A stretch of DNA of 64,000 bases from Candidatus Omnitrophota bacterium (GCA_040755155.1 JBFMBP010000032.1:26828-90827), one strand, 5' to 3'. Positions 21,677 through 64,000 are shown, counted from the stretch's first letter. Numbers and translations are program-made. Notes: a model not told the origin generated them from the sequence alone.

Positions 21677-21685
21677 GAGATTCTC

Positions 21686-33805: not shown

Positions 33806-33829
33806 CGCGTTATTCATACAAGATGAATC

Positions 33830-35740
33830 TTAGTTCGATAAGAACTCCACGGGACCCGTATTGGCGTAAGGGCCGGAGTAAACGGGGGAGCCGCTGGCTG
33901 TTAACACATACACTTTGAATGCGTATTTATGGCCGAATTGCGGACCGTTTTGAAAAGTGGGGTTTTGAAATTTCTGGTAGCCGGATTTCCATTCGTAATA
34001 CGTATCCGACGTGCTGGCCGCCTGGCCTAAATACTGATAGGCGCCGCCGTCCACGGAAACGTAGACGTGATAGGCTTTCGCGTCCGCATCCGTCAAGTTC
34101 CATTTGACCGCCAAAGCGCGTTCGGCGTCGGCGTCTTTATCCTGGCTATTGCTGAGATCGACCAAGGAAGCGGCGTTGTCCGCAACCGTTACGTTTGCGG
34201 TCGAACCGGTGCTGAAGGACCACAGCGGGCCTTGGATCGTTCCGTTGTTTTTCGTCACGGCGTCGACGCGCCAATAATATTGCGTCTCTTTTTGCAGACT
34301 ATCCACAGCGGCGCTGAGGATTGAGGATGTATATTGCTTTACGGACGAAGTAACAGCGGAGGCTTTATCCACTTCGTCGGCGTTGGTTCCTACGTAAATA
34401 TTGTAGGTTTCGCCGTAGTATCGGCCCGGCTGCCATTTCAGAAGGGCGCCGCCATTGCCGTCGATGGTTACGTTGGCCGCGTTATTCTTGGGCGCGGGTT
34501 CGCAGGGAGCGTTGAGAGCCAAAGGCATGACGCTGTCCAGCAGAACGACTTCGTAACTGCCGTCCCAGGTGTTGGTGCTGATGACGATGGACGCCTCGGA
34601 GTCTTTGAAATTATAGATCAGAGTATGGTAGCCGGGGAATGCGCCGCCGTGGCCGCGGCAGTCGCCGTAAGCCTGATGGGCTTGGATGAGTCCGCCGACG
34701 CCGTAATCCGTGTTAAACCATTTCAGATCGGCGGAGACGAACGTCTTCCATTTTTTCTGCGTACCTTTATTGAGAAGTTCTTCGCTGTTGAAGAGCGCTT
34801 CCAAGTAACGCAGCATATCCCACGGCGTGGAAATGACGGCGCCCGCCGCCCAGGCGTAGGATGGATTGACGTTGGTGACGTCTTGCCAATCTTCATAAGT
34901 GGGAACCTGAAGCGAATTGGCGCGGCTGTAGCCGTGGATCATATTGCTGGGTATCGTTTCGTCCGTGGCGAAATAGGTGTCGTCGAGGCCGAGTTTGTCG
35001 CAGATGCGCGACTTGACTTCTTCCGCCATCGTATGCCCCGTCACTTTTTCGATGATCATACCCACGAGAGTCAAGCCGGAATTGGTATACCACCAGTAAG
35101 GAATTTTAGAAGCTTGATCGGCGGGCGTTTGATATATGGCGGTTTCGTAGGGATTGGGATAGGTATCGCCCGGATTGAAGACGACTGCCATCGTATTCAT
35201 GCTGTCCACAAGATCTTGAGGAGTCCACGCCTTGGTGGGGTAGAGGTCCGGCGTCATGAGGATGTTTTTATCGTTGAGATATTCGGGCAGGCCGGAAGTC
35301 ATTTGCAGACAGTGTTGAATCGTAACCTTGTCGGCGTTATGCGTCAAAATGGTTTCGCCTAGATATTTCGATACCAAATCGTCCAGCCGGATCAATCCTT
35401 CCTGTTCCAATTGAAGGGCGATCATGGCAGTTAAAGATTTCGATACGCTGCCGATGCGGAATTGCATATCGGGCGCTTGCGGAATATTCTCCGCGATATT
35501 CGCTTTACCCGTCGTTCCAACGCGAACGCCCCAGTCCGGCGATTTAACGATCACGACGGCGCCGGGAATTTTTCCTTCGTTCGAGAGCGCGTCGATCTTG
35601 GCTTGCCAGGGAGAGGGAAACGATCTGTAATCCAGGACGTTCGACGCCGCATGAACGGCGCTGGGCATCATGATCGCGAATCCCGCCAGCGCGAGGACGG
35701 CGCTGCAAAAGACGGCAATCCATGGGCTTTTTCGCATCAT
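33830..35740 (-). CDS. Secreted S12/beta-lactamase-fold serine hydrolase (PBP/DD-peptidase-like) with C-terminal Ig/Fn3-like domains
   Basis: ORF 33830..35818. ATG at 35740 with an AGGAGAAG RBS, giving the signal peptide MMRKSPWIAVFCSAVLALAGFAIMMPSAVHA|AS. Catalytic motifs: SxxK (FRIGSVSKSL, DNA 35435-35461), YxN (WWYTNSG) and HxG (GHGGAFPGY). The last ~200 aa contain two Fn3-like repeats (..YYWRVDAV..). Confidence 0.85.
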   Translation of the reverse strand: MMRKSPWIAVFCSAVLALAGFAIMMPSAVHAASNVLDYRSFPSPWQAKIDALSNEGKIPGAVVIVKSPDWGVRVGTTGKANIAENIPQAPDMQFRIGSVSKSLTAMIALQLEQEGLIRLDDLVSKYLGETILTHNADKVTIQHCLQMTSGLPEYLNDKNILMTPDLYPTKAWTPQDLVDSMNTMAVVFNPGDTYPNPYETAIYQTPADQASKIPYWWYTNSGLTLVGMIIEKVTGHTMAEEVKSRICDKLGLDDTYFATDETIPSNMIHGYSRANSLQVPTYEDWQDVTNVNPSYAWAAGAVISTPWDMLRYLEALFNSEELLNKGTQKKWKTFVSADLKWFNTDYGVGGLIQAHQAYGDCRGHGGAFPGYHTLIYNFKDSEASIVISTNTWDGSYEVVLLDSVMPLALNAPCEPAPKNNAANVTIDGNGGALLKWQPGRYYGETYNIYVGTNADEVDKASAVTSSVKQYTSSILSAAVDSLQKETQYYWRVDAVTKNNGTIQGPLWSFSTGSTANVTVADNAASLVDLSNSQDKDADAERALAVKWNLTDADAKAYHVYVSVDGGAYQYLGQAASTSDTYYEWKSGYQKFQNPTFQNGPQFGHKYAFKVYVLTASGSPVYSGPYANTGPVEFLSN

Positions 35741-35978
35741 TATTCTTCTCCTTTTTTTATGTAGTTGATAGAAGGCTTGTAAGAAGCCAATACAACCAAA
35801 TCCAAAATCAATTTGCAATAAAAATCCAATATCAAGGGAAGGAATATCGCCGTTTTTATAAAATTTTATATTAGTACGACTTTTTTCAATATAACATATT
35901 TGCTATTCCTTGTATAGTTAATAAGGCAGAAGAATATTCGAGCCAGCATACAATTTTGATATTGCGCGAATCTCTATG

Positions 35979-38900
35979 TCATCGTTCAATGAACGAATGC
36001 TCAATGTGCGCTAATGTTTTCAATTCATTCTCGAACTCGCCAAGGAACCGTTCGATCGTTTCGCGCCGGTGAATTTTCCTGTTGTATCCAACATGGAAAA
36101 TAAGGCTGTTATGAAGCGTCATGCCGTCCATTTCCAATAAATGGCGGCGCTCCAATTCCGGGGCGATAGAGGCGGCGTCGAATTCTTCGGCGAGAGTGAA
36201 AACGCCGTTATTTTGAAATAAACCATCCACTCGGCCCATATAATTGAACAAAATATCGGGAGGAGGGAAGAAGCAAATTTCTTTTTCCAACGTTTCCGGC
36301 GTGAGATATTTCAGAACGCCATATCCGATCCCCTTATCGGGAATGGATTGCAGCATCTTCTGGATAAAAATAAGTTGTTCTTCGATATCTTTCTTGATAG
36401 GCAAATCCAGCAAGACGGGATAATGGCTGGTAAACCAACCCACTGTCCGGCTGATATCGAGACCTTTTTCAATCTCTTCCCGTCCATGGCCCGTAAGCGC
36501 AATCCTAAAGCGTTTTCCTGGGCGCCAACGGTTTAAGGCGCGGGCTAAAGCCGTCAACAATATAGCGATCGCGTCCGCGTTTTGGTTGAGACTGGCGGTT
36601 TGTTGCAACCGATCCGCATCATCCAGCGAGAGTTCCAGGCGCATCGATTTCACGTCGCCATAACGATTCTCGCTCTCTGGAAAATCGCGAGGAATCGAGA
36701 CCGCATCCGCCGAATCCACTTCCATCCAGTAAGATTTTTGCGCGAGTAGATCGGTGCGGACGCTATATTGGCGCAGAGCTTCCGACCATTGTTGATAGGA
36801 AGCCGTTTTAACAGGTAGAACCGGAGCAACTCCGTTCATCGCTTGTTTCAAGCTATCCGTCAGGTCTTCGAGGAGAAAACGCCAGGAAACGGCGTCCACG
36901 GCCAGATGATGAACTGTCAGCAAGAGATAATCATTCGTTTTCAATCGATAGAGGACGGATTTCATCAAGGGGCCGGTTTTCAAATCGAATCCATCCTGCA
37001 GGCATGCCGCATGGCGGATCATGGCTTGGGCGCCGTCGTTCTCGCGGCGGAAATCCATGACTGAAAATTGGATGGGAAGCGGGTCGCCGGCCATTTTCTG
37101 AATTACGCCGGAGGGCGTGAAACGGTAGCGCATTCGCAACGCATCGTGATGATTTTGGATCGCTTGCAGGGCGGTTCGCAGCGCCTCTTCCGGCAGACGA
37201 TCTTTCGCCCACAGCCAAACAGTATGATTGAAATGATGGAGGTTGGTAGAGTGTTCCTCGAAGAACCAACGTTGTATGGGAGTCAGTTCAACGATGCCCG
37301 CCGCGGTCTCATGAACGGCGGAGCGTTGGTTATGATTCAGTTTTTTGCATAGCCCCGCGATGGTTTTCCATTCGAACAAATCCCGTAAGGAAAGACGAAT
37401 GCCCGCCTTATGCAGACGGCTGGCAACCTGAATGGCTTTGATGGAATCGCCGCCTAGATCGAAAAAGGAATCGTGAACGCCTACTTTATCCTTTCCTAGC
37501 GCTTCTTGCCAGACTCTGGCGATTTCGATTTCCATTTTCGTTTTCGGAGGAACATAATTGTCGCCGCCGCTTTTCGATTGCGGCGAAGGCAATGATTTTT
37601 TATCGATTTTTCGATTGGGCGTCAGAGGCAATTCGTCCAAGCGAACGATATATTTAGGAACCATGTAAAAGGGCAAGACGCTGAATAAATGGCGGCGCAG
37701 TTCCAAGGAATCGCATTCGTTTCCGGCGGAGAAGTAAGCCGCCAATTCCTGGGTTCCATCTTTTCCCGCCAACGCTATAACCGTTGTTTGTTGCACGCCG
37801 GGATAGGCGCGCAGGCGATTTTCGATTTCCCCAAGTTCGATGCGGCAGCCGTGAATTTTCATTTGATCGTCTTCGCGGCCTAGAAATTCGATGCTTCCGT
37901 CCTCCAGCCAGCGGCCGATATCGCCGGTGCGGTAGAGCCGACCGTCTTCCTGGAAAGGGCTGGGGATGAATTTCTCATCCGTCTGTTCCGGGCGATTCAA
38001 ATAACCGCGCGCCAAACCTGCGCCTGCTAGGCAAATCTCTCCCGGCGCGCCGATGGGAAGCGGTTGGAGCGCGCGATCCAGAATACGGATGCGGGTGTTG
38101 ACTATCGGTTTGCCGATGGGAATGGCGCCGGGAAACGAATCGCCCGGCTTGATTTCCTGGTAGGCGGCGCACACCGTGGCTTCCGTCGGACCGTAGGCGT
38201 TGAAATAACGCAGGTTTTTTGCGTAATGGAGCGCGTCTTCCGCATAAGCCGCCTCGCCCGCCGTAATCATGACGCGCAAGCCGGGGAAATCCGCCTGCTC
38301 CAAAGCGCGAAGATAGGAGGGGGGAAATGTAACCACGGTCGCGCCATGACGCATCATATAAGCTCGCAGCGCATGTCCATCGCGGATGGTCTCTTCGCTC
38401 GCCAAGATCAAAGCGGCGCCCGATAGCAAGGCCATAAATATTTCGGAAAGGGAAGCGTCGAAGGAACAAGAGGCGAATTGCAGAACGCGGTCTTGAGGCG
38501 TTACGCCGAAGCCGCGAATCTGCTCGAGGATCATATTGACAAAGCCGCGATGTTCCACCATCACGCCTTTGGGCGTTCCCGTCGAGCCGGATGTATAGAT
38601 TACGTAAGCGAGATGGCGGCTGGCGCAGAATTTTGAAGGATTCTCGGATGGTCCATCGGCGATGGTTTGGATATTCAATGACAATCCGGGAAGAATGGCT
38701 TCGATTCTCTTGGTTGAGGCGGCGTCCGCAAGCGCAACCCGGCAACCGCAGTCTTGCAGAATGAATTGGATTCGCGCTTCGGGATAGGCGGGATCGATGG
38801 GAGTATAGGCGCCGCCCGCCTTCATGGCGCCCAACAGCGCTGCGATCGCCCAATCGCTTCGTTCCAGAAAGACTCCGATGCGGTCGTCGGGTTGAATGGA

Positions 38901-40457
38901 GTAATGTTGGCGCAAATAATGGGCGATGCGGTTAGCGCGTTCGTTCAATTCGCGATAAGTGAGACGGATTTCCTGAAAGAATACTGCAACATGATCCGGC
39001 GTTTTTTCTGCCTGTTCTTCCCAGAGATCAATCAGCGTCTTTTCTTCGGAGATGGGAACCGTGGGGCTGTTAAAATCATAAAGAATTCGCCGTTTTTCCG
39101 TCTCCGCGAGAATGCCCAGTAGTTTCAGAGGAATGCCGCCGCCGCAAATAACGCCACTGGCGATAGCGCGAAGATGTCCCGCCATGCGCTCAACCTGACG
39201 GCGCGAATAAGCGTTTCCATTGTAATTGAATTTGATTTCTATTTCCGCGCCGGGATGAACCAGAAGGCCGAAATTGTAATGAACTTGTTCGAACGTCCGG
39301 ATGCCTTCCACTTTGAAGCCCAGCCCGGAGTCCTCCGTTATTTCCTGCAGTTTGGAATCGATCGGATAGTTTTCGAAAACTAATAGATGATCAAGCAGTC
39401 CATGCTTGAGGGGCGATTCGGCTTGAATTTCGGCGAAGGGAAAGAAATCGTAAGGAGCGCTTTCCGTCGAAGCGATTTGGATTTGCTTCATCAAATCCAT
39501 GAAAGAAAGATCGTCATGCAATCGGATGCGGACGGGGATCGTATTGATGAACAATCCCACCAATCGCTCGACGCCGTTAACGTCCGCTGGACGTCCAGAA
39601 GCCACGGCTCCGAAGACGACGTCGTCCGCCCCGTTGTAACGGCTAAGCAAAACACCCCAGAGGCATTGCATCGCCGTGTTCAGCGTCGCGCCGTTCTGCG
39701 CCGCCAACCGGTTCAAGGCGGCGCTGGTTTCGGCGTCCAGGCGGAAATCGTATTCTTCAACGGCGTAGCCTTCCTTCCGTTTGGCGGCGTTCGCTCCTAA
39801 TGGAGAGGCGAGAGATTCGTAACCGGATAAATAATCCCGCCAATAGGCGCGCGCCGCTTCCCGATCCCGCGATTCAATCCAATCCAGATATTCGCCACAG
39901 GATACCGGTTCCAGCAGATGGGGAGGCCGGTTTTCTTTCAACGCTTGGTAAATTTCCAAAAATTCCGCTTGCAGAATGCCGCCGGACCAGCCGTCGATCA
40001 AAATATGCGGATGGCTCCAGATCATTTCGTAGAGAGAATCGCCAAGTTGAAGTATGGATATGCGCATAAGGACGTCGTGGCGCAGATCGAAGCCCCGGTT
40101 TCTATCTTCTTCTTTGTAATTTTTTAAAAAATCCTGCTGCGCCTTCGCATCGAGCGAACGTAAGTCTTTATAAGCGAATTCGGCGGATCTCTCTTTGAGA
40201 ATGAGATGGAGAGGTTGGGATGCGCCTTCGTGAACGAAGGCCGATCGCAGAATTTCATGCCGCTCCGACAAGAATTTCCAGGCGGCTTCGCAACGCTTCG
40301 CCTCGAAATCGCCGCGGAGGCGATAGGCGGTCTGTTCGAAATAAGCCCAGGATTTGGGTTCGTAGAGAGCGTGAAAAAGCATCCCCTCCTGCATGGGCAG
40401 CAGGGGATAAATGTTTTGCAGATTTTTTTTGGATACGGCGCCCGGTTGATTACTCAT
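35979..40457 (-). CDS. NRPS, terminal module C-A-T-E (no thioesterase or reductase)
   Basis: 1492 aa. DCL-type C domain (LLPMQEGMLFH..; SHPHILIDGW at 39985-40020). A domain (SGSTGTPKG at 38565-38610; ..NRKIDKKSLP at 37590-37635). T domain ([10 protein letters not shown] at 37428-37460). E domain (HHLAVDAVSW at 36881-36915, TGHGREE, VGWFTS), then stop. The ATG overlaps the upstream stop (ATGAGTAA, 40450-40457). Confidence 0.92.
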   Translation of the reverse strand: MSNQPGAVSKKNLQNIYPLLPMQEGMLFHALYEPKSWAYFEQTAYRLRGDFEAKRCEAAWKFLSERHEILRSAFVHEGASQPLHLILKERSAEFAYKDLRSLDAKAQQDFLKNYKEEDRNRGFDLRHDVLMRISILQLGDSLYEMIWSHPHILIDGWSGGILQAEFLEIYQALKENRPPHLLEPVSCGEYLDWIESRDREAARAYWRDYLSGYESLASPLGANAAKRKEGYAVEEYDFRLDAETSAALNRLAAQNGATLNTAMQCLWGVLLSRYNGADDVVFGAVASGRPADVNGVERLVGLFINTIPVRIRLHDDLSFMDLMKQIQIASTESAPYDFFPFAEIQAESPLKHGLLDHLLVFENYPIDSKLQEITEDSGLGFKVEGIRTFEQVHYNFGLLVHPGAEIEIKFNYNGNAYSRRQVERMAGHLRAIASGVICGGGIPLKLLGILAETEKRRILYDFNSPTVPISEEKTLIDLWEEQAEKTPDHVAVFFQEIRLTYRELNERANRIAHYLRQHYSIQPDDRIGVFLERSDWAIAALLGAMKAGGAYTPIDPAYPEARIQFILQDCGCRVALADAASTKRIEAILPGLSLNIQTIADGPSENPSKFCASRHLAYVIYTSGSTGTPKGVMVEHRGFVNMILEQIRGFGVTPQDRVLQFASCSFDASLSEIFMALLSGAALILASEETIRDGHALRAYMMRHGATVVTFPPSYLRALEQADFPGLRVMITAGEAAYAEDALHYAKNLRYFNAYGPTEATVCAAYQEIKPGDSFPGAIPIGKPIVNTRIRILDRALQPLPIGAPGEICLAGAGLARGYLNRPEQTDEKFIPSPFQEDGRLYRTGDIGRWLEDGSIEFLGREDDQMKIHGCRIELGEIENRLRAYPGVQQTTVIALAGKDGTQELAAYFSAGNECDSLELRRHLFSVLPFYMVPKYIVRLDELPLTPNRKIDKKSLPSPQSKSGGDNYVPPKTKMEIEIARVWQEALGKDKVGVHDSFFDLGGDSIKAIQVASRLHKAGIRLSLRDLFEWKTIAGLCKKLNHNQRSAVHETAAGIVELTPIQRWFFEEHSTNLHHFNHTVWLWAKDRLPEEALRTALQAIQNHHDALRMRYRFTPSGVIQKMAGDPLPIQFSVMDFRRENDGAQAMIRHAACLQDGFDLKTGPLMKSVLYRLKTNDYLLLTVHHLAVDAVSWRFLLEDLTDSLKQAMNGVAPVLPVKTASYQQWSEALRQYSVRTDLLAQKSYWMEVDSADAVSIPRDFPESENRYGDVKSMRLELSLDDADRLQQTASLNQNADAIAILLTALARALNRWRPGKRFRIALTGHGREEIEKGLDISRTVGWFTSHYPVLLDLPIKKDIEEQLIFIQKMLQSIPDKGIGYGVLKYLTPETLEKEICFFPPPDILFNYMGRVDGLFQNNGVFTLAEEFDAASIAPELERRHLLEMDGMTLHNSLIFHVGYNRKIHRRETIERFLGEFENELKTLAHIEHSFIER
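35982..37320 (-). other. Terminal epimerization (E) domain of the last NRPS module (approximate bounds)
   Basis: [11 protein letters not shown].., HHFNH, HHLAVDAVSW, TGHGREE, VGWFTS, FNYMG. It runs to the last residue of the protein. Confidence 0.8.
37590..39080 (-). other. Adenylation domain A4 (approximate bounds), Tyr-like specificity code
   Basis: Manual alignment to GrsA-PheA gives D-A-S-T-I-A-A-V-C-K (FDASLSE, VVTFPPS, MITAGEA, FNAYGPTEATVCA). This is closest to published Tyr-type codes DAST[VI]AAVCK. Confidence 0.6.
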
Positions 40458-43400
40458 CTTGGAAGATGTCCTCGAATTCGTTCAAATCCATCTTGACGCG
40501 CGAAACGTCGCTGGGAGTGATCTCCGCCGTTTGCCGGGATTGGCAATAAGCGACGATTTCATTCAATTCGGCGGCGTAATGTTCGAGAAACTGTTCGATC
40601 GTTTGGCGGCGGTGAATGGCGCGGTTGAACAGAATCGTTATTTCCAATCGATCGTTTTGGATCATACATCCGACATCCAGCAAATGGCTTCGCTCAAGAT
40701 TCTTGCCCGCTACGCTTCCGCATGGTTCTTGGGAGAGAGCGAAAGTTCCGTCTTTTTGCTTTTCGTCGATGCGTCCCAGATAATTGAAGCCGATTTCTCC
40801 ATGGATAAGGAGAGAAGCGCCGCCCAGACGTTCGGGTGGCGTCAGGTAGCGCAACGCGCCATAACCGATGCCTTTATTGGGAATGCGCCGCAGGGTTTCC
40901 TTGATTTCTTTAATTTGGCCGCCAATGTCGTTTTTCCCGCGCAGTTCCAATACGACGGGATATAGGCTGGTAAACCACCCGGCGGTGTGGCTGACATCTA
41001 CGCCTGGGACGGCGGTTTCCCGGCCATGCCCTTCCAGCATAATCAGGCAGCGGTTTCCGCCATGCCAACGCTTCAAGGCGCGGGCCAACGCTGTCAGCAA
41101 AAGGTCGGAGGTTTCCGTTTTGAAGGCATGGTTGGTTTTGGCGAGCCAATCGTTCGTTGCGGCGGAAGATAGCGTCAAACCGACCGTCTCCGAATCGCCG
41201 TAACGGTTAACGCTGATGGGAAAATCTACGGGAATAGGCGCAGTTTCGGCGGCAGCGGTTTTGGTCCAATAGTCCAGTTCCCGCAGCAGGCTTGGCGTTT
41301 CGCTGAATTTCCGCAGCGCTTCGGACCATTGCTTGAACGAGTCCGTCTTCATGGGTAAGCGGATTTCTCGCCCGGCGAGCGTCTGCCGGTAAGCCGTAGC
41401 CAGGTCTTCGAACAACACGCCCCAAGAGACGATGTCCACGACAAGATGATGAATGACGATCAACAGCCGGTCGCCGTCTTTCAAACGGCATAAGGCCGTT
41501 TTCATCAGAGGGCCTTTTTCTAGATTGAGGCTGCGCTGCATCGTCTCGGCGCAAGCGAGAAAATCTCTTTTACCGTCCTTGGCTTTTCGCATGTCGATGG
41601 TTTCGAAGGATAATGGGACGGGAAGCGGGGCGTATTCCTGAACGATCTTGTCATGTTGAATATGGAAACGCATCCGCAGGGCGTCATGATGGTTTTGCAG
41701 CGCTTCCAAAGCCAATTTCAAAGCGGATTCGTCGAAACGATCTTTGGCTTTCAGCAAAGCGGAATGGTTGAAATGATGCAAATCTTTCCGCCTTTCTTCG
41801 AAGAACCAATGTTGAATAGGCGTCAAAGCAACCGCGCCCGCCGCCGCTTCCTGCATGACTTCTTTCTTCGCGGCTCTTGTTTTGCCCGCCAGAGCGGCGA
41901 TCGTCGGCGATTGGAACAAATCCTTCATCTCGAGGGCGACGCCCGCCTGGCGCAAGCGGCTGACAGTTTGAATGGCTTTGATGGAATCGCCGCCGATTTC
42001 GAAAAACCGCTCGTGAATCCCCACGGTTTTTCGGCCTAAGACGTCCTGCCAGATTTTGGCCATAACCGCTTCGGTCTCGTTGCGCGGCGCGGCGTATTCG
42101 GTTTTGGAGCCAAGAGCGAAGGCTTCGGGCGCGGGGAGCGCTTTGCGGTCCACTTTGCCGCTCGGCGACAGCGGCATGGCGTCCAGCTGCGCCCAGCGGG
42201 TGGGAATCATATAATCGGGAAGCGTCTTTGCGAGATAGTCTTTCAACGCGGCGGCGTCCAGTACTTCGCTGGCGGCGATATAGCCGATCAGTTCCTTCGC
42301 TCCGTCCGCCGCATCGCGGACGACGACGGCGGCGCCGTTGATTTTAGGATGTTGCAGCAAATGGTGTTCGATCTCGCCGCATTCGATGCGGAATCCGCGC
42401 ACTTTCACCTGATCGTCGCGGCGTCCCATATAAACCACTTCGCCGCCGGGCAGCCAATAGCCCAGATCGCCCGTGAGATAGAGGCGGCGGCCTGGCTTAA
42501 AGGGATGGGAGATGAAAGCAGACGCCGTCAGGTCGTCGCGGCGGAGATAGCCCCGCGCCAACCCCGCGCCGCCGATGCCGATTTCGCCGGGCACGCCGAT
42601 AGGCGCGGGATTCTTATACTCGTCCAATATAAGAATTTCGAAATTGGATATCGGCTTTCCGATAGGAATGGCGCCGTTGTATATCCGCAGGGCATCCACT
42701 TCGTGCGCCGTGGCGCATACGGTCGATTCCGTCGGTCCATATGCGTTGACGAAGCGCAAGCATTGGGCGAAAGCGAGAGCGTCGTCCACCCGCGCCGCCT
42801 CACCCGCGGAGACCAATAGTCTCAAGGAAGGTAAATCCTCCGCTTTCAACTCGGCGGCGTAGGAGGGCGGCAGCGTGGCGATGGTTACTTGTTTTTCATT
42901 TATATAATCGGCGAAGCGGCGGTAATCGTCGACGCGCTCGCGTCCGGCGACGACCAGACAGGCGCCTTGCAACAACGCCATCAGCATCTCCCAAACGGAA
43001 GCGTCGAACGAAGACGGAGCGAATTGAAGAACGCGATCCTGCGCCGTTACGCCGAGTCCGCTCTTATGCCAGGCGGCCAGGTTGAGCGCACCCGAATGCT
43101 CCAGCATGACGCCTTTGGGCCGCCCTGTGGAGCCTGATGTGTATATGACGTACGCCAGGTTGTCCGCCTTGGCTGCGGAGATGGGATTGGCGGGCGAACC
43201 GTCTTGCAGCGCGCAGATATCAGCGGCGTTCTTGAGCGTTTCGCCAAACATTTTCCGATGCTTCTCGTCCGTCAAAACGACGGAGCATTGGGAATCGGAA
43301 AGCATATAGTCGATGCGGTCGCGGGGATAACTCGGATCAATGGGAAGATAGGCGCCGCCCGCTTTTACGATGCCCAGAAAAACGATGGGCGTCCATTCGC

Positions 43401-46400
43401 TGCGGTCGAGCAGGACGGCGGCGAGCTTGTCGGGACCTATGCCGTAATCTTCGCGCAGGCGATGGGCCAGTTTGTTCGCCCGCTCGTTCAATTCAGCGTA
43501 TGTAAGTTGCGCCTCTTCGCAAATGACCGCCAGCCGGTCCGGCGCGGCGGCGGCGATCTCCTCGAACTGGGCGGCGATAGTTTTCTCTTGCGGGTAAGGA
43601 GCGATGCAGTCGTTGAATTCCGTCAAAACCTGGCGGCGCTCCCATTCCGGAAGAATATTGATTTTGTTGATGGATTGCGAAGGATCGGCGACGGCGTTCT
43701 TCGCTAACTCGGCGAGATGCTGCGCCATGCGTTCCATCCGGCCGCGGTCGAATAGATCGGTATTGTATTCAAGGTTGAGAAGCATTTCGCCGTTATTTTT
43801 TTCTACGAATTCGAAGGAGATGGCGAATTTGCTGACTTGGAATACGTCGATAAAATCGCCGATCTTCACGCCTTCCAATTCGAATTCGCGTTGATTTTTA
43901 TCTTGCAAGATCAACATGACTTCGAAGAGCGGCGGTCGGCTCATATCGCGTTCCAGACCCAGATCGTCCACCAGCCGGTCGAAGGGATAAGCGCGATGCT
44001 CCAAGGCTTCTTCCGCCGTGCGCTTGATTTTCTCGAAGGTTTGCGCGAAGGAATCGCTTCCCTTCAGCCGGTCGCGCAGCGCCAGCGTATTGACGTAGAA
44101 ACCAATTTGATTCTCCAAATCCGCATGATCCCGCCCCGCGATGGGACTGCCGATGATTATGTCTTCCTGTCCCGAATAACGATAGAAGAGCGTTTTCACC
44201 AAGGCCGTCAGCGTCATGAAGAGGCTGCCCCCATGCTCGCGAGCGAAGCGCCGCAGCATCGACGCAAAATCTTTATCCCAAGCGCAAACCACCTTATCGC
44301 CGTTAAAGGTTTGAATCGCCGGACGCGGGCGGTCAGTGGGAAGATTCAACGGCGGCGGTTCGGGAGTAAATTGTTGGCGCCAATATTCGCGATGCGGCTG
44401 TATGGCCTCGCTGGTCAGCAAGGCGTTCTGCCAGGCGGCGTAATCTTTATAGTGGATTTTCAAGGGCGCAAGAGGATTCTCTTCGTTTTTGGCGAAAGCC
44501 TGATATAGCGTCAGCAGTTCGTTCACTATTACGGACGCCGACCAGCCGTCGAAGACGATGTGATGGATGTTAACGAGCAATATATGGCGATGCTCGCCGA
44601 GTTTGACCAGCTTGGCTCGCAGCAACGGCCCGCGCGTCAAATCGAAACGCTGCACCGCGTCTTGGCGCGCCAATTTCTTCGCTTTCTCTTCGGATTGGGA
44701 TTCGCCGCTGACATCGATGAGTTCCACTTGAAAGCCGATATCGTCATGGATAATCTGCCGCGGTTCGCCCGCGATGGAAGCGAAAGTCGTACGCAGCGAT
44801 TCGTGGCGCTTCACGATGGTTTCCAGCGCTTTTCGCAACGCTATAACGTTGAACGATCCTTCTAATAACAGCGCTGTGGGCAGGCTGTAGGCTTCGGAAG
44901 CTACTTCCAATTGACTTAGAATCCACAAGCGCCGCTGGGCGTGAGAAACGGCGTAATCGGGGCGGGGCGGCAGCGGCTCAATAGCGGCGTAATCCCGCTT
45001 CTGCGCCGTCCGAATATATTCCGCCAGCTGACGGATCGTAGAGCGTTCGAAGAAGAGGCGGATGCTGACGTCGACTCCGAAATCGCGGTGGATCCAGGAT
45101 AGGATGCGGATGGCGTTTAATGAGTTGCCGCCGATTTCCAGGAAGGGGGAATTGACGCCCACACGCTCCAATCCTAACGTCTCGCGCCATATCGCCGCCA
45201 ATTTCTCTTCCGTCTCGCCGGCGGGCGGTTCGTAAGCGATGCGGTCGTAAATCAGTTCTTCCGGTTTGGGCAAAGCGCGACGGTCAATCTTGCCGTTCAC
45301 GTTGAGCGGGAAAGCATCCATACGCACGAAGAAACTGGGTATCATCGCGGGCGGCAGGTAATCGCGCAATCGCTCGCGCAGAACGGCGCCGTCGATGGGA
45401 GTTTTTTCCGTGTAGTAGCAAGCGAGCGCTTCCTGGCCGTCCGCGCGTTTGTGGACGGCGGCGAGGGTTTGGTCGATTTCCGGCGAAGCGAGCACGGCGC
45501 GGTCGATCTCCGCCAATTCCACGCGCACTCCGTTGATTTTGACTTGGCGGTCGACGCGCCCGATGAAATCGATGGCGCCATCAGGAAGAAAGCGGCCTAA
45601 ATCGCCGGTGCGGTAAATGATGTCGTCGGGATTGTCCGATAATGGATTATGAACGAAACGCTCCACCGTCATGGCCGGATCACGGAAATAACCCTGGCAG
45701 CGGAAAGGCGGCTGAATGCAGATTTCGCCGATGGCGCCCGCCGCCGCCGTTTTTTTCTCTTTGAGAATAAAAACATTTGCGCCCTGGATCGGCTTGCCGA
45801 TGGGGATGATTTTATTGGGATCGCCGATGGGGCCGTCGAGGCGGTTGAAAATTTTCGCCAGCGTGGTTTCGGACGGTCCGTATAGATTGACGAATTGCGT
45901 TTGATCGCCTAAACACTCCCGCCCGCGCAATACGTCTTTGCCTAACAGCGCTTCTCCCGCCAGAATCACAAAGCGCATGGCGGAGAGGATTTTTTTGCGC
46001 TCGCCGCGCGCTTCGATTTCATTGAGCAGCATACGAAAGATGCTGGGTACGATGTGCATCAGCGAGACTTGTTTTTCGTCCAGCCAGCGCAACAGCAGAG
46101 AAGCGTTTCCCCGCAACTCATGATCGGGAATGCAGACGATTCCGCCGGATAGAAGCGGAACGAAGATATCGCGCAGGCTGACGTCGAACGTCGTCAGCGC
46201 CAGGTTGCTAGCGCGGACGGAAGCGTCGAATCCAAACTCGGAAATCTCCCATTGAATAAAATGGCTTAATCCTTCATGGCTGCTAAGAATGGCTTTCGGT
46301 TCGCCGGTGGAGCCGGAGGTAAAAATGACGTACAGGCTATCGCCGGGAACGGGGCGATCTTCCAGATTTTCGTCCGCTTTGCCGCTCGTAACGGCGGCGC

Positions 46401-49400
46401 GGCTATTCTCTCCCCAGCGTTCATAATCAAAAGCGCCGTCTTCACCCGCGATAAAAATCCCTTGCGGCGGGGATTGGAGTTGAATAGCGGATAGGGCGGT
46501 GTCCAGGGACGATTTCCACGCTTCGCTGGTAATAAGGATCGCCGGTTCGATTTTATTGAGAATCGTTTCCAGCCGCTTGATGGGGCTGTCCACGTCGAGA
46601 GGAACAAAGACGCCGCCCGCCTTTTGCGCGGCGAGAATGCTGACGAGATAATTGATGCTGTTGCGCTGATAGACGCCAACCAAAACGCCGCGCTGGACGC
46701 CTCGTTCGCGCAGAGCGCGGGCGAGAATATTGGCGCGGCGATTCAGTTCGCGGTAAGAAATTTCCTTCCCAGCGCCATCGGCGGCGATGGCATCCGGCGT
46801 TCGGCGCGCTTGTTCTTCGAATAAATCCAATACCGTCGCATCGGCGCGATAGGAAGCAGCGGATGGCGTTGAAATATCATCGGCGCTTAGTTTTTCTCTT
46901 TCGCTTAAAATTTCTATTTCATCGAAAAGAATATTTTCATTTTGCAAAACGGCGGCGACGAGCGAGCGGAAATGGTTTTCCATATTTTCGATCTGTCGCC
47001 GATCATAGGCGTTGGCGTTATAGGTAAACTTGATTTCGGTTTCTTCACCCGGATGAATGACGATGCCGAAATCGTAGTGCATCTGCTCAACGCCGCGAAC
47101 ATTTTCGACGATAAAGCCAAGGGAAGAATGAGCCGATCCATCCTGCAGTTTTTGCGCCAGGGGAAAATTCTCGAAGACCAGCAAATGATTCAGCAGGTCA
47201 TGTTTCAACGGCGAACGCGTCTGAATTTCCACTAGCGGATAATAATGATGCGGCTCGCATTCCGCCGCCCGGCGTTGGACGTTTTGCGCCAATTCGGCAA
47301 AAGTTTGATGGTCGTCTATTCGAATGCGCACCGGCAAGGAATGGAGAAACAAGCCTACCATATTCTCCACGCCATTCACTTCCGCCGGACGTCCGGAAAC
47401 CACGGCGCCGAAGACAACGTCGCGTTTCCCGGAATAACGTCCTAACAAAATTCCCCACAAAGTCTGTATGACTGAATTCAAGGTCGCGCCCAATCGCGCC
47501 GCCAGTGCGTTCAGTCCGGCGCAGGTCTCTTTAGAAAGCGAAAAGGGACGTTCTTCCAAAGCGTATTCCGCAAACGTCCCTGCTATCCTGCCCAAAGGAA
47601 CGGCGAGCGCGTCGTAGCCTTCCAGATAGGCGTCCCAAAAACGGCGCGCGGCGTCTTTGTCCCGCTGTTCCAGCCAGTCGATGTAATCGCCATAAGAAGG
47701 CGCTGGAGCGAGCGCAAGCGGCTGTTTCGTTCGCAAGGCTTGATAGATGGACGCGAAATCCTCCTGCAATACGCCCAGAGACCAGCCGTCGAGGATGATG
47801 TGATGATGGCTCCAGACTACCTCGAAGGTTTTGTCTTCTATTTGCAGCAGCGCGATACGCATGAGGACGCAGCGGGTTAAATCGAAGGGACGGCGGCGAT
47901 CCTCTTGGCAGTAGTATTCGACGCGCGCCTCGCGTTCGGCGGCGGGCAGATGGCGCAGGTCTTGGTAATGAAACTCGGCGTCGCGTTTTTTCCACACGAT
48001 CTGCAAGGGGCGTTTGACTTGTTTATAAACAAAGGAAACGCGCAGAATCGCATGGCGCCTTACTAATTCGTTCCATGCAGATTCAAAGAGGCCGCGGTCC
48101 AAATCGCCGCGCAGGCGATAGGCGAATTGTTCGAAATAGGAATTGGAATTTTCTTCGGCCAGCGAATGATACAGCATCCCTTCCTGCATCGTGGAGAGAG
48201 GCAGAATGTCTTCCACTTCATGCGCCGCCGCGCCGATGGAGCGCAATAATGAATCGAATTCGTCCAAATTCAATTCGCAATAATGCAAATCGCTGGGAGT
48301 AATCTCATCATGAATTCGATCCCGGCAATAATCGATGACGCGCCGCAGCTCGTTTTGATAATTATCCAGAAAATGTTGGATGGTTTCCTGGCGATGGATG
48401 CGGCGGTTGTAATGAATGGCTAGTTGCAAACGCCCATCGAAAACGGCGCCTTCTATTTCCAATAGGTGAGCGCGTTCGACCTGATCTCCGCAAGAATGGC
48501 TTGTTGATTCCTTCGCCAAAGAGAAAAGGCGATTAGGCCCGGCGTCGAAACTACCCAAATAATTGAAAGCGATTTCCGGCGCCAGACCGAACGCCAAATC
48601 TTCTTTCAACTCCGCTAGCGTAAGATATTTCAATATTCCATAGCCGACGCCCTTCTTGGGAATCCGGCGCAGCGTTTCTTTAATGGTCTTAATTTGAAGT
48701 GGTAGATCGTTAGCGCCGGATATATCCAAGATGGCGGGATAAAGGCTAGTAAACCATCCCACGGTTCGGCTCGCATCGATGCCTTCGGCCACAGATTCGC
48801 GTCCATGCCCTTCGAGCAGCAGGCGAAAGCGTCCGCCGCCGCTCCAATTCTTGAGCGCGCGGCTTAGCGCCGTCAGCAACAGATCGTTGATCTCCGTGCG
48901 ATAGGCATGACTGGCGCGCTTGAGCAAATCCTCCGTTTCTTGCGCGGTTAGTTCTGCATGAAGTACATCTTCGTCTCGATACAGATTATCGGCGGCGTCA
49001 AAATCACGGGGGATAGCGTCCCAAGCGGTGGATTCAATTTCCCGCCAATAGGATTTTCCCGCCAATAGCGAATCGCTGCCGGCGTAAACATCAAGAGCAT
49101 CGCCCCATTGGATAAACGACGACGTTTTAGCGGGCAGATGAATGGTTTTTCCTTCCTGCGCTTGCCGGTAAGCGGATTCCAGGTCTTCCATAAGGATGCG
49201 CCAGGATACGCCGTCGATAACCAAATGGTGGAACAGCAACAGCAGCCGGTCGCCGTCTTCCAGCCGGAACAGCGCCGCTTTCATCAAGGGGCCGGTTTCC
49301 AGATTAAACGATTTCTGCATTTCCTCGGCGCGAGCTGTCAACGCCGCCGCGCCGTCTTTGTTTTGGCGCAAGTCCGCCGTTTCGAAATGAAGCGGATGGG

Positions 49401-52400
49401 AAAGACCATTCACTTCTTGGATAATATCGTCTCTCTGAAAGCGATAGCGCATACGCAAGGCGTCGTGATGTTCCTGAATGGCGGCTAACGCTTGCCGCAG
49501 CGCCGCTTCGTCGAGCTGCTCTTGCGCTCGCCATAAGGCGGCATGATTGAAATGATGGCGATCGGAGAAATGCTCCTTAAAGAACCAACGTTGAATCGGC
49601 GTCAGTCTCGCCTCGCCGACCGCCGCGCTCTGGTTGGCCGCGCGTGTGATTTCTTTCGCTTGCCCGGCGAGGACGGCGATGGTCCGCGCTTGGAAGAGTT
49701 GGCTCATCTCCACTTTCAGGCCCACCTGGTATAAGCGGCTGACGACTTGAATGGCTTTGATGGAATCGCCGCCCAAAGCGAAATAATCGTCGTAAATCCC
49801 CACGCTGGACGCGCCGAGAACTTCTTTCCACGCTTGCGCCAGTTTGGCTTCGATTGGATTTCGCGGAGCGGCGTAGGCCGTTCCCGTATTGATGGTTCGC
49901 CGATCAGGCGCAGGCAGCGCTTTTCGATCCACCTTGCCGTTAGCCGTTAAAGGGAATGTTTCCATCTGAACGAAATAGGATGGAATCATATAAACCGGCA
50001 GCGTCTGCGAAAGATGCTGGCGCAGCGTCTGGATGTTCAACGGTTCGGCGGCGGTGAAATAAGCCGTCAGTTCCTGCGCTCCGCTCTCGGCTTCATGCGC
50101 CAGGACTACAGCCTTTTCGATGCGGGGATGCTGCAACAGCTGATGGCCGATCTCTTCCAACTCGATGCGAAAGCCGCGGATTTGCACTTGTCGATCGTTG
50201 CGGCCTAAATACTCGACGCCGCCGTCAGCCAGCCTGCGTCCCAGATCACCCGTCCGGTAAAGCCGCTCGTTCTTGCGGAAGGGGCTGGCGAGAAAACGCT
50301 CTTTCGTCAATTCCGGACGGTTGAGGCAGCCCTGGCAAACGCCGGTTCCGCCGACGTAGATTTCGCCCGCGACGCCGATGGGCTGTTGGTTCATGAATTC
50401 GCCGCAAATATAGAGCGTGGTTTCGGGAATGGGGCGCCCGATGGGGCTGCGCCCGCCCGCGCCGGATATATCGCTCGATCGAATCGGATAATAAGTAACG
50501 TGCACCGTGGTTTCAGTGATGCCGTACATATTGATAAGAGCGATTTTGTCGAGGGGATACAGTTCCGTCCACGGGCGCAGAAAAGCCGGTTCCAGCCGGT
50601 CGCCGCCGAAGATGACATAACGCAGATGTTCGCCGAGGTTGTGAGTCTTTTGGCGCCGTTCCGCTTCGATCAGGTTGTAGAACGCGCCCGGCGTCTGATT
50701 CAAAACTGTGATTTTATTTTGCTGGATGAAATCCAAAAAAGCGTGGCTGTCCCGCGCGACTTCTTTTGGAACGACAACCGTTTTTCCTCCATACAATAAC
50801 GCTCCATACATTTCCCATACGGAAAAATCGAAGCAGAAGGAATGAGCGATGGCCCAAACGTCGTTTTCATGAAAATCGAAATCGAATCGGCTGTTTTTCA
50901 TCAATCGTACGACGTTGCGGTGCGTAATCAGGCAGCCTTTAGGCTTGCCCGTCGAACCTGAAGTATAGATGACGTAGGCGGGCATATCCGGCTTAGCCGC
51001 CGGAGCTGGATTGGAGGTTTCAGCGGAAGCGAAGGAATGGATATCGACGGCTTTTTCCCGAACAGCGGGCGCCAGCGTTTGCGCTAGCGTTCCGCTGGTC
51101 AAGAGAACGCGGCAGCCGCTGTCTTCCATCATGAAATTAAGCCGCTCCGCCGGATATTCGGGATCGAGGGGAACATACGCGCCGCCTGCTTTTAAAACGC
51201 CAAGCAGAGCGACGGGCGTCCATTCGCTGCGTTCGAGCAGAACGCCGACGAGATCGCCCGGCTTGACTCCGTATTGTTGGCGCAGGGCGTTGGCGATTCG
51301 ATTCGCCCGCGCATTCAATTCCCGATATGCAAGAACGGCGCCGCCGAAAACGACGGCGGGACGATCCGGCGTCTGATGGACTTGTTCTTCGAAAAGATCG
51401 GCAAGCGTCTTATTCTGGGGATAATCGGCGCTAGTGTTATTCCACTGCGCCAGCTGATCGCGCTCTTCATGCGTGAGAATATCCATGCCGCCGATAGGAC
51501 GATCGGGAGAAGCCGCGATTTCCTGCAAAATTTTCAAGAAATATCCGCGCCAGCGTTCCGCTGTCTCCCGCTTGAAGAGACGAGTGGAATATTGAAAATC
51601 GAGATGCAGCGTTTCGCTCTCTTCAACAATATCAAGACTAAAATCGAACATGGAAGCGGGAAGATGAATCTCTCGCGCCATGAAAGTAAGGTCTTTGATC
51701 GTGAAGACGCGCGAATCGGCGTTTTCGTAAGACAACATCGCGTCGAATAGCGCATGGCGGCTTTGAGAGCGGGATGCATTCCACTCCGCCAATTTTTCGA
51801 AGGGATAATCTTGGTTGTCGTAGACGGCGGCGCAGGTGTTCTTGACGGAATCGAGAAATTCGCGGAAAGGCGCATCCCCGCGCGGATGGCAGCGCAAAAC
51901 CACGGTATTGACGAACATGCCTACGGCTTCCGCCAATTCGGCGCGCTGGCGTCCGGATGCGGGGCCGCCTACGAGAATGTCGTCCTGGCCCGTGAGCCTA
52001 TAAAGCAGAACGTTATAAGCCGCCAAGAGCAGCATGTAGAGCGAGGCGCCGGATTGCTTGGCCAGCGTTTTCAATCGGCGCAGCAAAGGCGCGTCTACTA
52101 ATGCCAAAAGATGATCGCCTTCGAATGACAACTCGGCAGGACGGGGATAATCGGAAGGTAAGTTCAACGCTGGAAGCGTTCCGCCAAGCTGTTCCCGCCA
52201 GAAGGCTTCCTGTTTGGCGATCTTCTGCGATTTCTGCTCCTCTTCGATCAAGCGCAGACATTCCCGGTAGGAATGTTTGATCGGCGTCAGTGAAAGCCCT
52301 TGATAAAGCGCCATCAAATCGCGGGCGATGATATTGAAGGAGATGCCATCGACGGCGATGTGGTGGGCGTCGGCCATCAAGAGATAACGATCGGGCCGGA

Positions 52401-63800: not shown

Positions 63801-64000
63801 CAAACTATGGCAGGCGAGATGCAGCGCTGCCAGCGATGAGGAACAAGCCGTATCCACAGCCATGCACGGCCCTTCAAAGCCGAAAGTATAAGAGATGCGC
63901 CCGGCGGCGGGTGCGAAACAGGTTCCCGTCAGCGCGTAGCCGTCGATGATGCCGTTATGGCCGGAATGGCGGTGCGACTGCGTATAATCGTCGCTAGAGA
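57813..64000 (-). CDS. Type I PKS module KS-AT-DH-ER-KR-ACP, 5' part outside the window
   Basis: The frame is open up to base 64000 (..[55 protein letters not shown]), so the M at 63863 is internal. KS Cys at ~63840-63860. AT GHSIGE at 62421-62450 with HAFH (malonyl-type). DH HPYLGQKIASP at 61601-61625. ER LNFRDVL and HAGAGGVGMAAVQLA at 59521-59560. KR TGGLGALG at 58921-58960 plus SNYAAAN. ACP GFDSLT at 58005-58040. Short C-terminal docking tail. Confidence 0.9.
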   Translation of the reverse strand, partial: SSDDYTQSHRHSGHNGIIDGYALTGTCFAPAAGRISYTFGFEGPCMAVDTACSSSLAALHLACHSLRNQESDMALAAGVNLILSPIFHICSTKLGTISPDGRCKTFDASADGYGRGEGCGALLLKRLSDAIKDNNRILAVLRGTAVNQDGKSNGLTAPNGLAQEKVIRRALENAGLQPADIGYMEAHGTGTPLGDPIEVESIARVMKNGHTKENPILLGSVKANIGHLEAAAGISGVIKVIQSLRHEKIPPHPHLKNPSPYIPWDQLPVFVPTALTPWPRSETPRRAGVSSFGFSGTNAHAIVEEAPIVKRTMVPSGIAGEVGEDTGEKPTPAAAAISAERPVHILPLSAKNEVALKQLAARYADYFEQNPNTPIADACYTAGAGRSHFENRLAAAGAASEDFKDALRKFSQGEKTKSLTSARGGRPRLAFLFTGQGSQYVGMGRGLWDAQPVFRQAMEECDAILREYLNASLIDSIYGEKADDAVLTQTQYAQPAIFAIEYALYRLWTSWGATADIAAGHSIGEYAAACAAGIVSLPDALKLVAARGQLMQSLPAGGSMAAVFANEDEVQPLVDARKTDASLAAINSPGSVVISGRREAVAEILAKLKSKGISSQELNVSHAFHSPLMDPILNKFEHIAASVNYEAPRLLIVSTVTGKKAASGDLASASYWANQIRRPVRFLAAMETMAAENADIFLEMGAAPTLTGLARRSISQENKAFLASLKKGEDDWNFLLASLAEIYVRGAEIDWEGFDASYSRTKIALPAYPFQRKSYYMSPVQNGQSGGEISLGRNAHPYLGQKIASPCLDGGIILFQNLFTETRPAFLKEHKIYGKIISPAAAHVSMALSACRRVFGDGMGVIEEVEFTAPLVVNEGESRWVQTIIENSKSAKPSFRIVSRSAEDDAASWITHCSGNIARKSDQQSDMTTSGSSWRELEEKFSSGAMESEEFYSYIESVGYSTGPNFQCIHAIRQGTDEAFCRLQPAKAIDDAAVHPGLIDSMLQTVLPACKASATAMLEGDNILIPLHMSQVQVHRSLAGELYCYTRVKLQESIIKCEIAVFNSQGEQALEIKDFLLKLTDRQTLYRELREDDKNSIYEIEWREMKAEEFSAAQEKLRYILFADSQGVCDALEKEIEKKGEAYIKVVAGKQFEKTGDNISTIDPANAEDFMRLFEHWAKDSSPAMTKILFLWGVDAMPSQDTQALEEEEKRLCGGVLHIVHALEKLNKTDKAQLWLVTNRCQAVAPEDRLTPPASAALWGLGRALALEHPEMWGGLLDIDNDASAASALALLELMNKSNGEDQTALRRGGRRFAARLARRKAKTSRQEYDKTLAYPAVSETQAYYLDVGARKTLDELSFKIRERRVPDADEVEVRIHAAGLNFRDVLNALGQYPGDAGLMGYESAGTVAAIGENVGDLKVGDPVIAMAAPGCIGSYITLNRAFVFKKPDGMTLEEAVTIPATFLTAYYALHELGALKRGERILIHAGAGGVGMAAVQLALDAGAEIFATAGSPEKREYLRSLGVHHVLNSRTLDFADEIKRITGGRGVDAVLNSLSGEFIAKSFSVLANLGRFLEMGKIGIWDASQVRELNPTFAYYPFDLAAVSRQNPALIGRMFHELMAKFAKGDLKPLPITVFPLANAIDAYRYMAQAKHIGKIVLSRQDEIRRENIQRRGLIQSEGTYLITGGLGALGLLMVRWLAEQGAHHLALTGRSAPKPAAEAVMRELREGGAEIAVLQGDMACGADVERILNHIRSAMPPLKGIIHAAGLLDDGMMAEQTWERFQKVMAPKVRGAWNLHQATKNDDLDFFALFSSVAAIIGNLGQSNYAAANAFMDGLAHYRRQLGLAAVSVNWGPWADAGMAADMAVDRFFAQGIRYIQPETGMRLMKTILQENMIQACAFDVDWNAYGASHGLDASAGLFANLIGETAKSAADEAPSDRRDIANELREVLPAQRRGLLAARLQRIAQSVLGYNESERIAPDQPLVNQGFDSLTTVDMRNRLSKEIGASLPASLLYDYPTLDKISRYLLDEVVILEESEPAPDESKTETQSVLKEIDELLV

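Follow-up and report, generated by a model that had tools for sequence, protein, structure and literature searches.

A thioesterase-less PKS-NRPS family with an exported S12 hydrolase, most likely a processing peptidase, and a terminal epimerization-like domain lacking the catalytic glutamate

Chain release sets the final shape of a nonribosomal peptide, and few release strategies are known. Here we describe a hybrid polyketide synthase-nonribosomal peptide synthetase (PKS-NRPS) gene cluster in a 64,000-nucleotide stretch of DNA from Candidatus Omnitrophota bacterium (GCA_040755155.1 JBFMBP010000032.1:26828-90827; the whole stretch is hereafter called the window). The last synthetase protein, NRPS-C, ends without a thioesterase (TE), and the next gene on the same strand encodes a serine hydrolase of the S12 family, which has the penicillin-binding protein (PBP)/beta-lactamase fold. 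A preliminary description of this DNA had suggested that the hydrolase might release and macrocyclize the peptide in the manner of SurE. Our analysis led us to a different reading. The hydrolase is most likely an exported processing peptidase resembling ClbP and TriF, and the terminal epimerization (E)-like domain of NRPS-C, designated E*, which lacks the catalytic glutamate throughout the family, is a new lead on chain release. We assign a probability of roughly 0.6 to the combined explanation, in which an exported enzyme processes the peptide and E* would release it in cis. Its two parts are not equally firm: the hydrolase is very probably exported, dedicated to the pathway, and not the off-loading enzyme, and the assignment of E* as the release catalyst is tentative.

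The hydrolase gene (33830..35740, on the minus strand, as are all the assembly-line genes and domains described below) encodes 636 residues, starts with the ATG at 35740 with AAGGAG just ahead, and matches PF00144 (E = 6.5e-45). The gene lies 238 bp downstream of NRPS-C, and the SxxK, YxN, and HxG motifs by which it had been recognized are present as S98-V-S-K101, Y218-T-N220, and H364-G-G366, all of which are invariant across 32 aligned homologues. Residues 1-31 (35648..35740) show the pattern of a Sec-type signal peptide (MMRKS, 20 hydrophobic residues, and VHA/AS), in agreement with the preliminary description. A positively charged n-region followed by a hydrophobic core was found in 70 of the 79 members of the hydrolase family; of the remaining nine, at least seven are visibly truncated at the N-terminus. 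A lipobox is present in several members. These features come close to establishing that the hydrolase family is exported; in a diderm producer, this would mean a periplasmic location. Residues 5-33 form the sole hydrophobic segment, and the C-terminal transmembrane helices of the ClbP type are thus absent, as had been noted. Many proteobacterial orthologues (P0023-P0074) possess a Pro/Ala-rich linker of 30-100 residues after the signal peptide, with a conserved Cys in the sequence PPAVC; this linker is not found in the window hydrolase.

The catalytic PBP-like domain comprises residues 46-394 (34559..35605), as defined by PF00144 and the fold matches, and is followed by a beta-sandwich similar to fibronectin type III (Fn3) domains (residues 413-511; 34208..34504) and an extra C-terminal domain (residues 516-636; 33833..34195). 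In the AlphaFold model, whose mean predicted local distance difference test score (pLDDT) is 81, the catalytic domain and residues 413-511 are confidently modeled, the latter consisting entirely of beta-strands with pLDDT >90. The region equivalent to residues 413-511 gave an fn3 match in 10 of the 32 homologues and a match to the Fn3-like family PF16656 in 11, and W436, W490, and W507 in this domain are invariant in the alignment. The extra C-terminal domain has pLDDT values mostly <50 and no Pfam match, and it occurs in none of the other 31 aligned homologues. The presence of Fn3-like rather than lipocalin-like C-terminal domains, as previously proposed, therefore holds for residues 413-511, and the plural is only partly verified for residues 516-636.

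The kinship of the hydrolase was judged by ranked fold and sequence matches to Protein Data Bank entries. The best sequence match was alkaline D-peptidase (ADP; 4Y7P, E = 6.2e-31); the R61 DD-peptidase (E = 4e-26), a D-stereospecific hydrolase, and a D-amidohydrolase were also among the top matches. The leading folds were those of R61, the D-stereospecific amidohydrolase 3WWX, 4Y7P, D-amino-acid amidase, and dHy1, with TM-scores of 0.79-0.88 on the target (0.83-0.88 for R61, 3WWX, ADP, and dHy1). ClbP ranked 24th by fold, and SurE (6KSU) ranked only 48th with 20% identity and was not within the 60 best sequence matches. When ClbP was compared with the hydrolase by sequence, only its first ~100 residues matched. 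The rankings place the hydrolase, with little room for doubt, in the R61 DD-peptidase/alkaline D-peptidase branch of the S12 family, the closest solved relatives being R61 of Streptomyces, the alkaline D-peptidase of Bacillus cereus, 3WWX, and D-amino-acid amidase (24-28% identity). The enzymes of this branch are single-domain proteins and, to our knowledge, are not tied to natural-product clusters, whereas the hydrolase carries one or two additional beta-sandwich domains and shows a fixed synteny with an NRPS.

This synteny was examined in the four closest relatives (47-52% identity) and in 24 loci from a scan using one genome per species. The sample included uncultured metagenome-assembled genomes (MAGs), Bryobacterales, Inquilinus, Sphingomonas, Rhodanobacteraceae, Duganella, Tahibacter, Magnetospirillum, Azospirillaceae, and Lysobacterales. 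A condensation-adenylation-thiolation-epimerization (C-A-T-E) module lies immediately 5' of the hydrolase gene, on the same strand, in all 21 loci having upstream DNA. In the four closest relatives, the hydrolase directly follows an orthologous hybrid protein of 5.2-5.7 thousand residues and the C-A-T-E protein, and the downstream flanks, consisting of AsnB-like, ATP-binding cassette (ABC), ParA-like, and phosphopantetheinyl transferase (PPTase) genes, are unlike that of the window. The gene order in Magnetospirillum molischianum, on a single strand, is NRPS-C, hydrolase, AsnB-like gene, PKS loading gene, and PKS1; the hydrolase is thus inside the cluster, since it is flanked by NRPS-C and PKS genes. 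The preliminary description had stated that conservation of the hydrolase beside its downstream genes in genomes lacking the NRPS would make it an unrelated secreted enzyme. What we found instead was the 21/21 pairing with varied flanks, which ties the hydrolase to the NRPS. The pairing is limited to the hydrolase clade at about 42% identity or above, and no adjoining NRPS was found for relatives at 36-40% identity (P0077 and P0079) or for an R61-like outgroup from Kitasatospora (Streptomycetales). P0077 (40% identity) is one of two tandem paralogues. The gene of P0079 (36% identity) overlaps the stop codon of an Asp/Glu-racemase-like open reading frame (ORF) with a GCTE motif and is followed by an ABC gene, a context that suggests a link to D-amino-acid metabolism.

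Within the clade, the hydrolase belongs invariably to a conserved hybrid PKS-NRPS pathway without a TE. Our literature search found nothing relevant on this cluster family, nor on Gram-negative or secreted PBP-type TEs. The family is widespread (Alpha-, Beta-, and Gammaproteobacteria, Acidobacteriota, and uncultured lineages) and, as far as this search shows, undescribed.

NRPS-C (35979-40457, 1492 residues) contains Pfam Condensation, AMP-binding, and PP-binding domains and a second Condensation-family domain. The earlier reading of this protein as a C-A-T-E module that stops at the end of its E domain was borne out by Pfam and motif analyses. The terminal domain E* (residues 1051-1492; 35982..37307), assigned by motifs and alignment, shares 47% and 45% identity with the two E domains located within this assembly line and possesses the motifs PIQRWF, HHLAVDA (residues 1183-1189), xGHGRE, RTVGWFT, and FNYMG. 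The E domain of GrsA was used as the reference; the numbering of the sequence used reproduces the published S573, H753, E892, and N975/Y976. In E*, T1322 (codon 36492-36494) occupies the position of the catalytic Glu (GrsA E892, the first Glu of EGHGRE). GrsA H753 and E892 (TycA H743 and E882) form an acid/base pair, and the E882A substitution in TycA caused a 99.5% loss of the D-Phe-L-Pro diketopiperazine (DKP) product (PMC8905534).

The loss of this Glu is a property of the family. The terminal domains of the window and 22 orthologues have Thr, Ser, Ala, or Met at the E892 position in 23 of 23 cases, and the Glu is kept in five of five internal E domains from these assembly lines. Among the 120 nearest database E domains, 118 have Glu, one has Asp, and one has Ala, the last being a member of this family. 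HH, D757, HGR, RTVGWFT, and N975/Y976 are nevertheless conserved in the terminal domains despite overall identities of 27-43%, and the Ser motif of the terminal T domain is also kept in the orthologues. In addition, E* is missing the ~25-residue COM/linker tail (EITPSD...) that is present in the E domains of the first and third modules before the next C domain. Judged from this pattern of conservation, E* appears to be under selection but not to be a normal epimerase. The preliminary description had predicted a D-Tyr-like residue at the terminus; the Tyr-type specificity code of the last A domain (see below) supports its Tyr part, but its D configuration is insecure because E* is without the catalytic Glu. 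The orthologous terminal domains also have His for GrsA N834 in 19 of 22 cases and Ala for GrsA D868 in 17 of 22; at position 834, Asn is retained in the window and its closest relatives.

No conventional release domain was found in the window. NRPS-C ends directly after E*, and no Pfam match to Thioesterase or NAD_binding_4 was obtained in the PKS and NRPS genes of the window. Likewise, thioesterase and reductase families were absent from 21 other large ORFs of the window scanned with Pfam, and no terminal C domain was found in the window. These scans agree with the earlier statement that the assembly line and the window contain no TE, reductase, or terminal condensation-like release domain. 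The sole esterase-type match, a protein with PF00756 and CBM48 domains (17385-18701), was considered as a hidden TE and rejected; it is ~15 kb away, has unrelated neighbours, and is unseen in the orthologous clusters. The first PKS gene of the window runs off its end, and the upstream side of the cluster was therefore judged from orthologous contigs. On the upstream side of the closest such cluster, a ligand-gated-channel-like gene and genes for a sigma-54 activator, thioredoxin, CheW, and a methyl-accepting chemotaxis protein were found, but no TE gene, and there was likewise none in the 10-kb flanks of the other orthologous loci. The earlier conclusion that the release chemistry is either unusual or encoded elsewhere stands.

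As seen in the window, the assembly line starts with a PKS module of ketosynthase (KS), acyltransferase (AT), dehydratase (DH), enoylreductase (ER), ketoreductase (KR), and acyl carrier protein (ACP) domains (57813..64000), identified by Pfam; ~155 residues of its N-terminus lie past the window end (64000), and the full-length protein is 2216 residues (P0121). It is followed by a hybrid PKS-NRPS of 5713 residues (40450..57591), for which Pfam, the domain map, and the specificity codes gave the order KS-AT-ACP-aminotransferase, C-A(Thr)-T-E, C-A(X)-T, and C-A(Phe)-T-E. The module of NRPS-C then comprises a C domain (39084..40418, PF00668), an A domain (37578..39047), a T (peptidyl carrier) domain with an intact GGDSI motif at residue 1001 (37344..37523, PF00550, residues 979-1038), and E*. 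The codes extracted from the four A domains are, in order, DFWNIGMVHK, DVRHIALL-K, DAWTVAAVCK, and DASTIAAVCK. By comparison with published codes, we take the first, third, and fourth to specify Thr, Phe, and Tyr, respectively; the residue of the second is written as X. The terminal code is identical in 14 of 20 orthologous loci and differs by one residue in the other 6, and the last three codes (X-Phe-Tyr) are nearly constant across the orthologous loci. The C domain of NRPS-C carries the motif PHILIDGWS (~39990-40020), with Pro in place of the first His of HHxxxDG, and the motif is kept as [PAS]H[IL]xxDGWS in 18 of 18 orthologues examined.

From these modules we predict a short peptide with the structure beta-aminoacyl-(D)Thr-X-(D)Phe-Tyr. 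Its free beta-amino group is predicted because the aminotransferase domain is present. The first NRPS module has a canonical E domain and would yield an N-(beta-amino)acyl-D-Thr unit; the absence of an N-acyl-D-Asn prodrug module, noted earlier, agrees with its Thr-type code. The E domain of the third module is confined to the window and two close MAGs among the orthologous loci. The code of the second module (A domain at 45259-46842) is DVRH[LF][AG][LI]L[AC]K in almost all orthologues, with DARH... in one. It resembles the hydroxyphenylglycine-type code DIFHLGLLCK but has Arg at 239, and this Arg may point to a substrate that is small and acidic or unusual in some other way.

The orthologous clusters contain several accessory genes. 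An AsnB-type glutamine amidotransferase of ~620 residues follows the hydrolase in 21 loci; the protein has Cys2 and SGGLDSS, scores above the TIGR01536 cut-off, and looks active from its sequence. A TIGR01194 ABC exporter and a Band_7 protein are present in 13 orthologous loci, and the ABC protein scores above the curated cut-off of TIGR01194 ('cyclic peptide export ABC transporter', SyrD/PvdE type). The closest clusters also encode a PPTase, an SBP_bac_8 protein, and ParA-like and DUF697 proteins. In the 64-kb window, neither the AsnB-like nor the Band_7 query gave a match. The search for the cluster-type ABC protein in the window produced only weak matches (26-29% identity) to unrelated ATPases of MacB systems (9305-11012), which were rejected.

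We propose that these components act in the following way. The chain may be released in cis by E*, either through hydrolysis of the thioester or through ring closure by the free beta-amino group, as in fungal terminal C domains, and the free peptide would be exported by a 'cyclic peptide export' ABC transporter of the SyrD/PvdE type, as encoded in the orthologous clusters. The hydrolase, situated across the membrane from the NRPS, would act only after export; it could not off-load the carrier-bound thioester because it would be on the opposite side of the membrane from the cytoplasmic synthetase. The site of cleavage or transfer would be a D-configured residue, and the reaction would be a maturation step comparable to those performed by ClbP, PvdQ, and TriF. 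All characterized S12 peptidases, as far as we know, recognize a D-residue at the acyl side; the candidate bonds in the predicted peptide are those after D-Thr1, after D-Phe3 (in this lineage), and at the C-terminal Tyr. The finishing step in the periplasm might be a transpeptidation like that of the cell-wall DD-peptidases.

Parts of the proposal have precedents in known systems. Colibactin (ClbP) and pyoverdine (PvdQ) are established examples of products that are exported and then processed by a periplasmic hydrolase dedicated to them. ClbP, XcnG, and ZmaM are periplasmic S12 peptidases of hybrid PKS-NRPS clusters with a dedicated exporter, and their first NRPS module is, as here, a C-A-T-E module producing an N-acyl-D-residue. 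The hydrolase differs from ClbP in having no C-terminal three-helix membrane domain, and the predicted substrate differs in having Thr (DFWNIGMVHK) instead of Asn as the first residue and a beta-amino group on the acyl moiety. The pyoverdine system (PvdE and PvdQ) likewise combines a TIGR01194-type exporter with subsequent processing of the NRPS product by a periplasmic hydrolase, although PvdQ is an N-terminal nucleophile hydrolase and the pyoverdine NRPS has a TE. As for release by E*, the fungal terminal C domains release peptides through the attack of an internal amine (PMC10510592). E* resembles these domains in being a member of the C/E superfamily at the very end of a TE-less NRPS, in keeping the catalytic His, and in the availability of a free internal amine, but it is clearly derived from an E domain and does not have their SHxxxD motif.

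Several points weigh against this explanation. The assignment of export rests on sequence rules, and the periplasmic site presupposes a diderm producer. The upstream end of the cluster is beyond the window, so that a stand-alone TE could lie there, and a 290-residue alpha/beta-hydrolase is encoded near the Magnetospirillum cluster. The AsnB-like gene, a partner of the hydrolase in 21 loci, is not in the window. With regard to E*, the Fisher test for the Glu loss gives p ~1e-24, but the 23 domains share one ancestor and represent one kept event. The E892A substitution was reported to reduce the activity of GrsA only about 6-fold, as cited in PMC8905534. E* might therefore still epimerize slowly, or it might have only a leftover structural role, as the inactive E domain of LgrA does; it would then be a weakened or inactive epimerase rather than a release catalyst. 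We consider it unlikely, though worth stating, that the proposal holds in its boldest form, in which E* is a converted epimerase constituting a new type of bacterial release domain and the exported PBP-like enzyme finishes the molecule in the periplasm.

An alternative role for the same exported enzyme is self-protection, in which a D-stereospecific resistance peptidase like TriF or BogQ destroys the cell's own peptide near the producer membrane and takes no part in biosynthesis. The hydrolase is a cluster-encoded exported S12 peptidase whose nearest solved relatives are D-peptidases, and it resembles TriF and BogQ, as far as they are described, in being associated with an NRPS product that has D-residues. 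TriF, whose gene belongs to a biosynthetic cluster, is a D-peptidase with an exported domain; it prefers a D-aromatic residue and cuts after it (PMC8127968). The peptide predicted here contains D-Thr and, in this lineage, D-Phe. On the other hand, TriF and BogQ are products of accessory self-protection genes in Firmicutes, whereas the hydrolase gene directly follows the last NRPS gene across phyla, and a biosynthetic step would account at least equally well for its retention there in 21 of 21 loci. In a diderm, moreover, destruction of every exported molecule would be futile; maturation is favoured over self-protection because a periplasmic enzyme would meet every one of them. We regard the protective role as an unlikely but serious candidate.

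It is less probable that the hydrolase acts as a periplasmic transpeptidase or cyclase, using the C-terminal residue or an amide made by the AsnB-like enzyme as the leaving group and passing the acyl group to the beta-amino group or to an acceptor in the envelope. Such an acyl transfer is the chemistry of peptidoglycan DD-transpeptidation, and the best fold matches include the R61 DD-transpeptidase/carboxypeptidase, a D-amino-acid amidase, and a D-amidohydrolase competent in aminolysis. The active-looking amidotransferase that follows the hydrolase in the 21 loci would fit this role, and the lineage with an E domain in the third module would give a D-Phe-(D)Tyr end. However, that E domain is found only in the window and the two close MAGs, so that a D-D terminus is not general, the AsnB gene is missing from the window, and the idea is purely inferential. 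A general D-Phe-D-Tyr end for DD-peptidase action was examined and rejected; apart from the restricted distribution of this E domain, the dual E/C motif HH[ILMV]xxxxGD was not found in the other loci.

The SurE-type mechanism suggested in the preliminary description has, in our view, slightly poorer prospects still. In this mechanism, a trans-acting PBP-type TE takes the peptide ending in D-Tyr off the last carrier and cyclizes it head-to-tail via the beta-amino group. PBP-type TEs consist of a PBP-like domain and a lipocalin-like barrel and cyclize peptides ending in a D-residue (PMC11735501, PMC11601455). In the surugamide, desotamide, and ulleungmycin clusters, a stand-alone S12 enzyme is encoded directly after a TE-less T-E terminus (PMC11735501), and the arrangement in the window is the same. 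The likeness to these enzymes (SurE, MppK, DsaJ/WolJ, Ulm16, and PenA) extends to the Ser-Lys-Tyr/Asn-His motifs and the aromatic nature of the predicted terminal residue. The 21/21 pairing in the absence of any other conserved release enzyme and the nucleophile predicted from the aminotransferase domain also speak for cyclization by the hydrolase. Nevertheless, the PBP-type TEs are cytoplasmic, and the export signals found throughout the hydrolase family, including the lipoprotein forms, would place the hydrolase and the NRPS in separate compartments. The C-terminal domain is Fn3-like instead of the eight-stranded lipocalin-like barrel, which is reported to be essential for cyclization by PBP-type TEs (PMC11601455). 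In both fold and sequence the hydrolase stands nearest to R61 and the D-peptidases, with SurE far down the ranking, and the D-residue needed by PBP-type TEs is doubtful with an E* lacking the catalytic Glu. The PBP-type TEs characterized in the cited literature are, furthermore, from Streptomyces, whereas the hydrolase occurs in Proteobacteria, Acidobacteriota, and uncultured MAGs. The SurE lead was therefore abandoned. Finally, that the hydrolase is an unrelated secreted enzyme and a chance neighbour of the cluster is very improbable; the AT-rich spacer with weak promoter-like matches, the housekeeping genes that follow (radical SAM and RNase G), and the separation of the most divergent relatives, P0077 and P0079, from any NRPS would allow it, but the adjacency in 21 of 21 loci with differing flanks and the position within the cluster in Magnetospirillum speak against it.

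The traits linked in this family are the missing TE, the terminal E-like domain minus its catalytic Glu, and the constant secreted D-peptidase-like enzyme, and the predicted peptide is almost invariant. If it is true that the E-like domain releases the chain, it would represent a new type of release domain. Completion of the molecule by the secreted enzyme outside the cytoplasm, if it occurs, would extend the periplasmic maturation known from ClbP and PvdQ to a new branch of enzymes and would make the hydrolase a new D-selective biocatalyst. For genome mining, a TE-less NRPS accompanied by a PBP-like gene should not be taken as SurE-type until export signals and the lipocalin domain have been checked. 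The carriers of the cluster include cultured strains, among them Magnetospirillum molischianum DSM 120, Tahibacter aquaticus DSM 21667, and Inquilinus ginsengisoli.

The 238-bp spacer between the NRPS-C stop codon and the hydrolase gene (35741..35978, minus strand) is AT-rich, with a GC content of 29.8%, and had been taken to suggest that the hydrolase has its own promoter. Weak promoter-like matches were indeed found on the minus strand of the spacer, and no terminator-like site was found on that strand. The gap between NRPS-C and the hydrolase is, however, 8-139 bp between the called genes of the orthologues; the long AT-rich spacer and the idea of a separate promoter are particular to this genome. 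Downstream of the hydrolase, a 545-bp non-coding gap (33285-33829) separates its stop codon from the gene of a TIGR03960-type radical SAM protein and marks the cluster boundary in this genome. This gene and those for RNase E/G and a SIS-domain (MurQ-like) protein are housekeeping genes.

Two other loci of the window drew our attention. At 22145-24408 on the plus strand, the gene for a HerA-like ATPase (DUF87 and HAS barrel, 560 residues) overlaps the stop codon of a 194-residue ORF without a family match; the two genes may form a module for defence or DNA processing. The GC content is somewhat lower (0.496) in the 20001-22000 bin, immediately upstream of the pair. The region 1695-12330 on the minus strand is an unusually expanded MacB-like efflux locus, in which genes for two ABC ATPases and an HlyD-type adaptor come after those for three tandem MacB/FtsX-type permease paralogues (816-843 residues).

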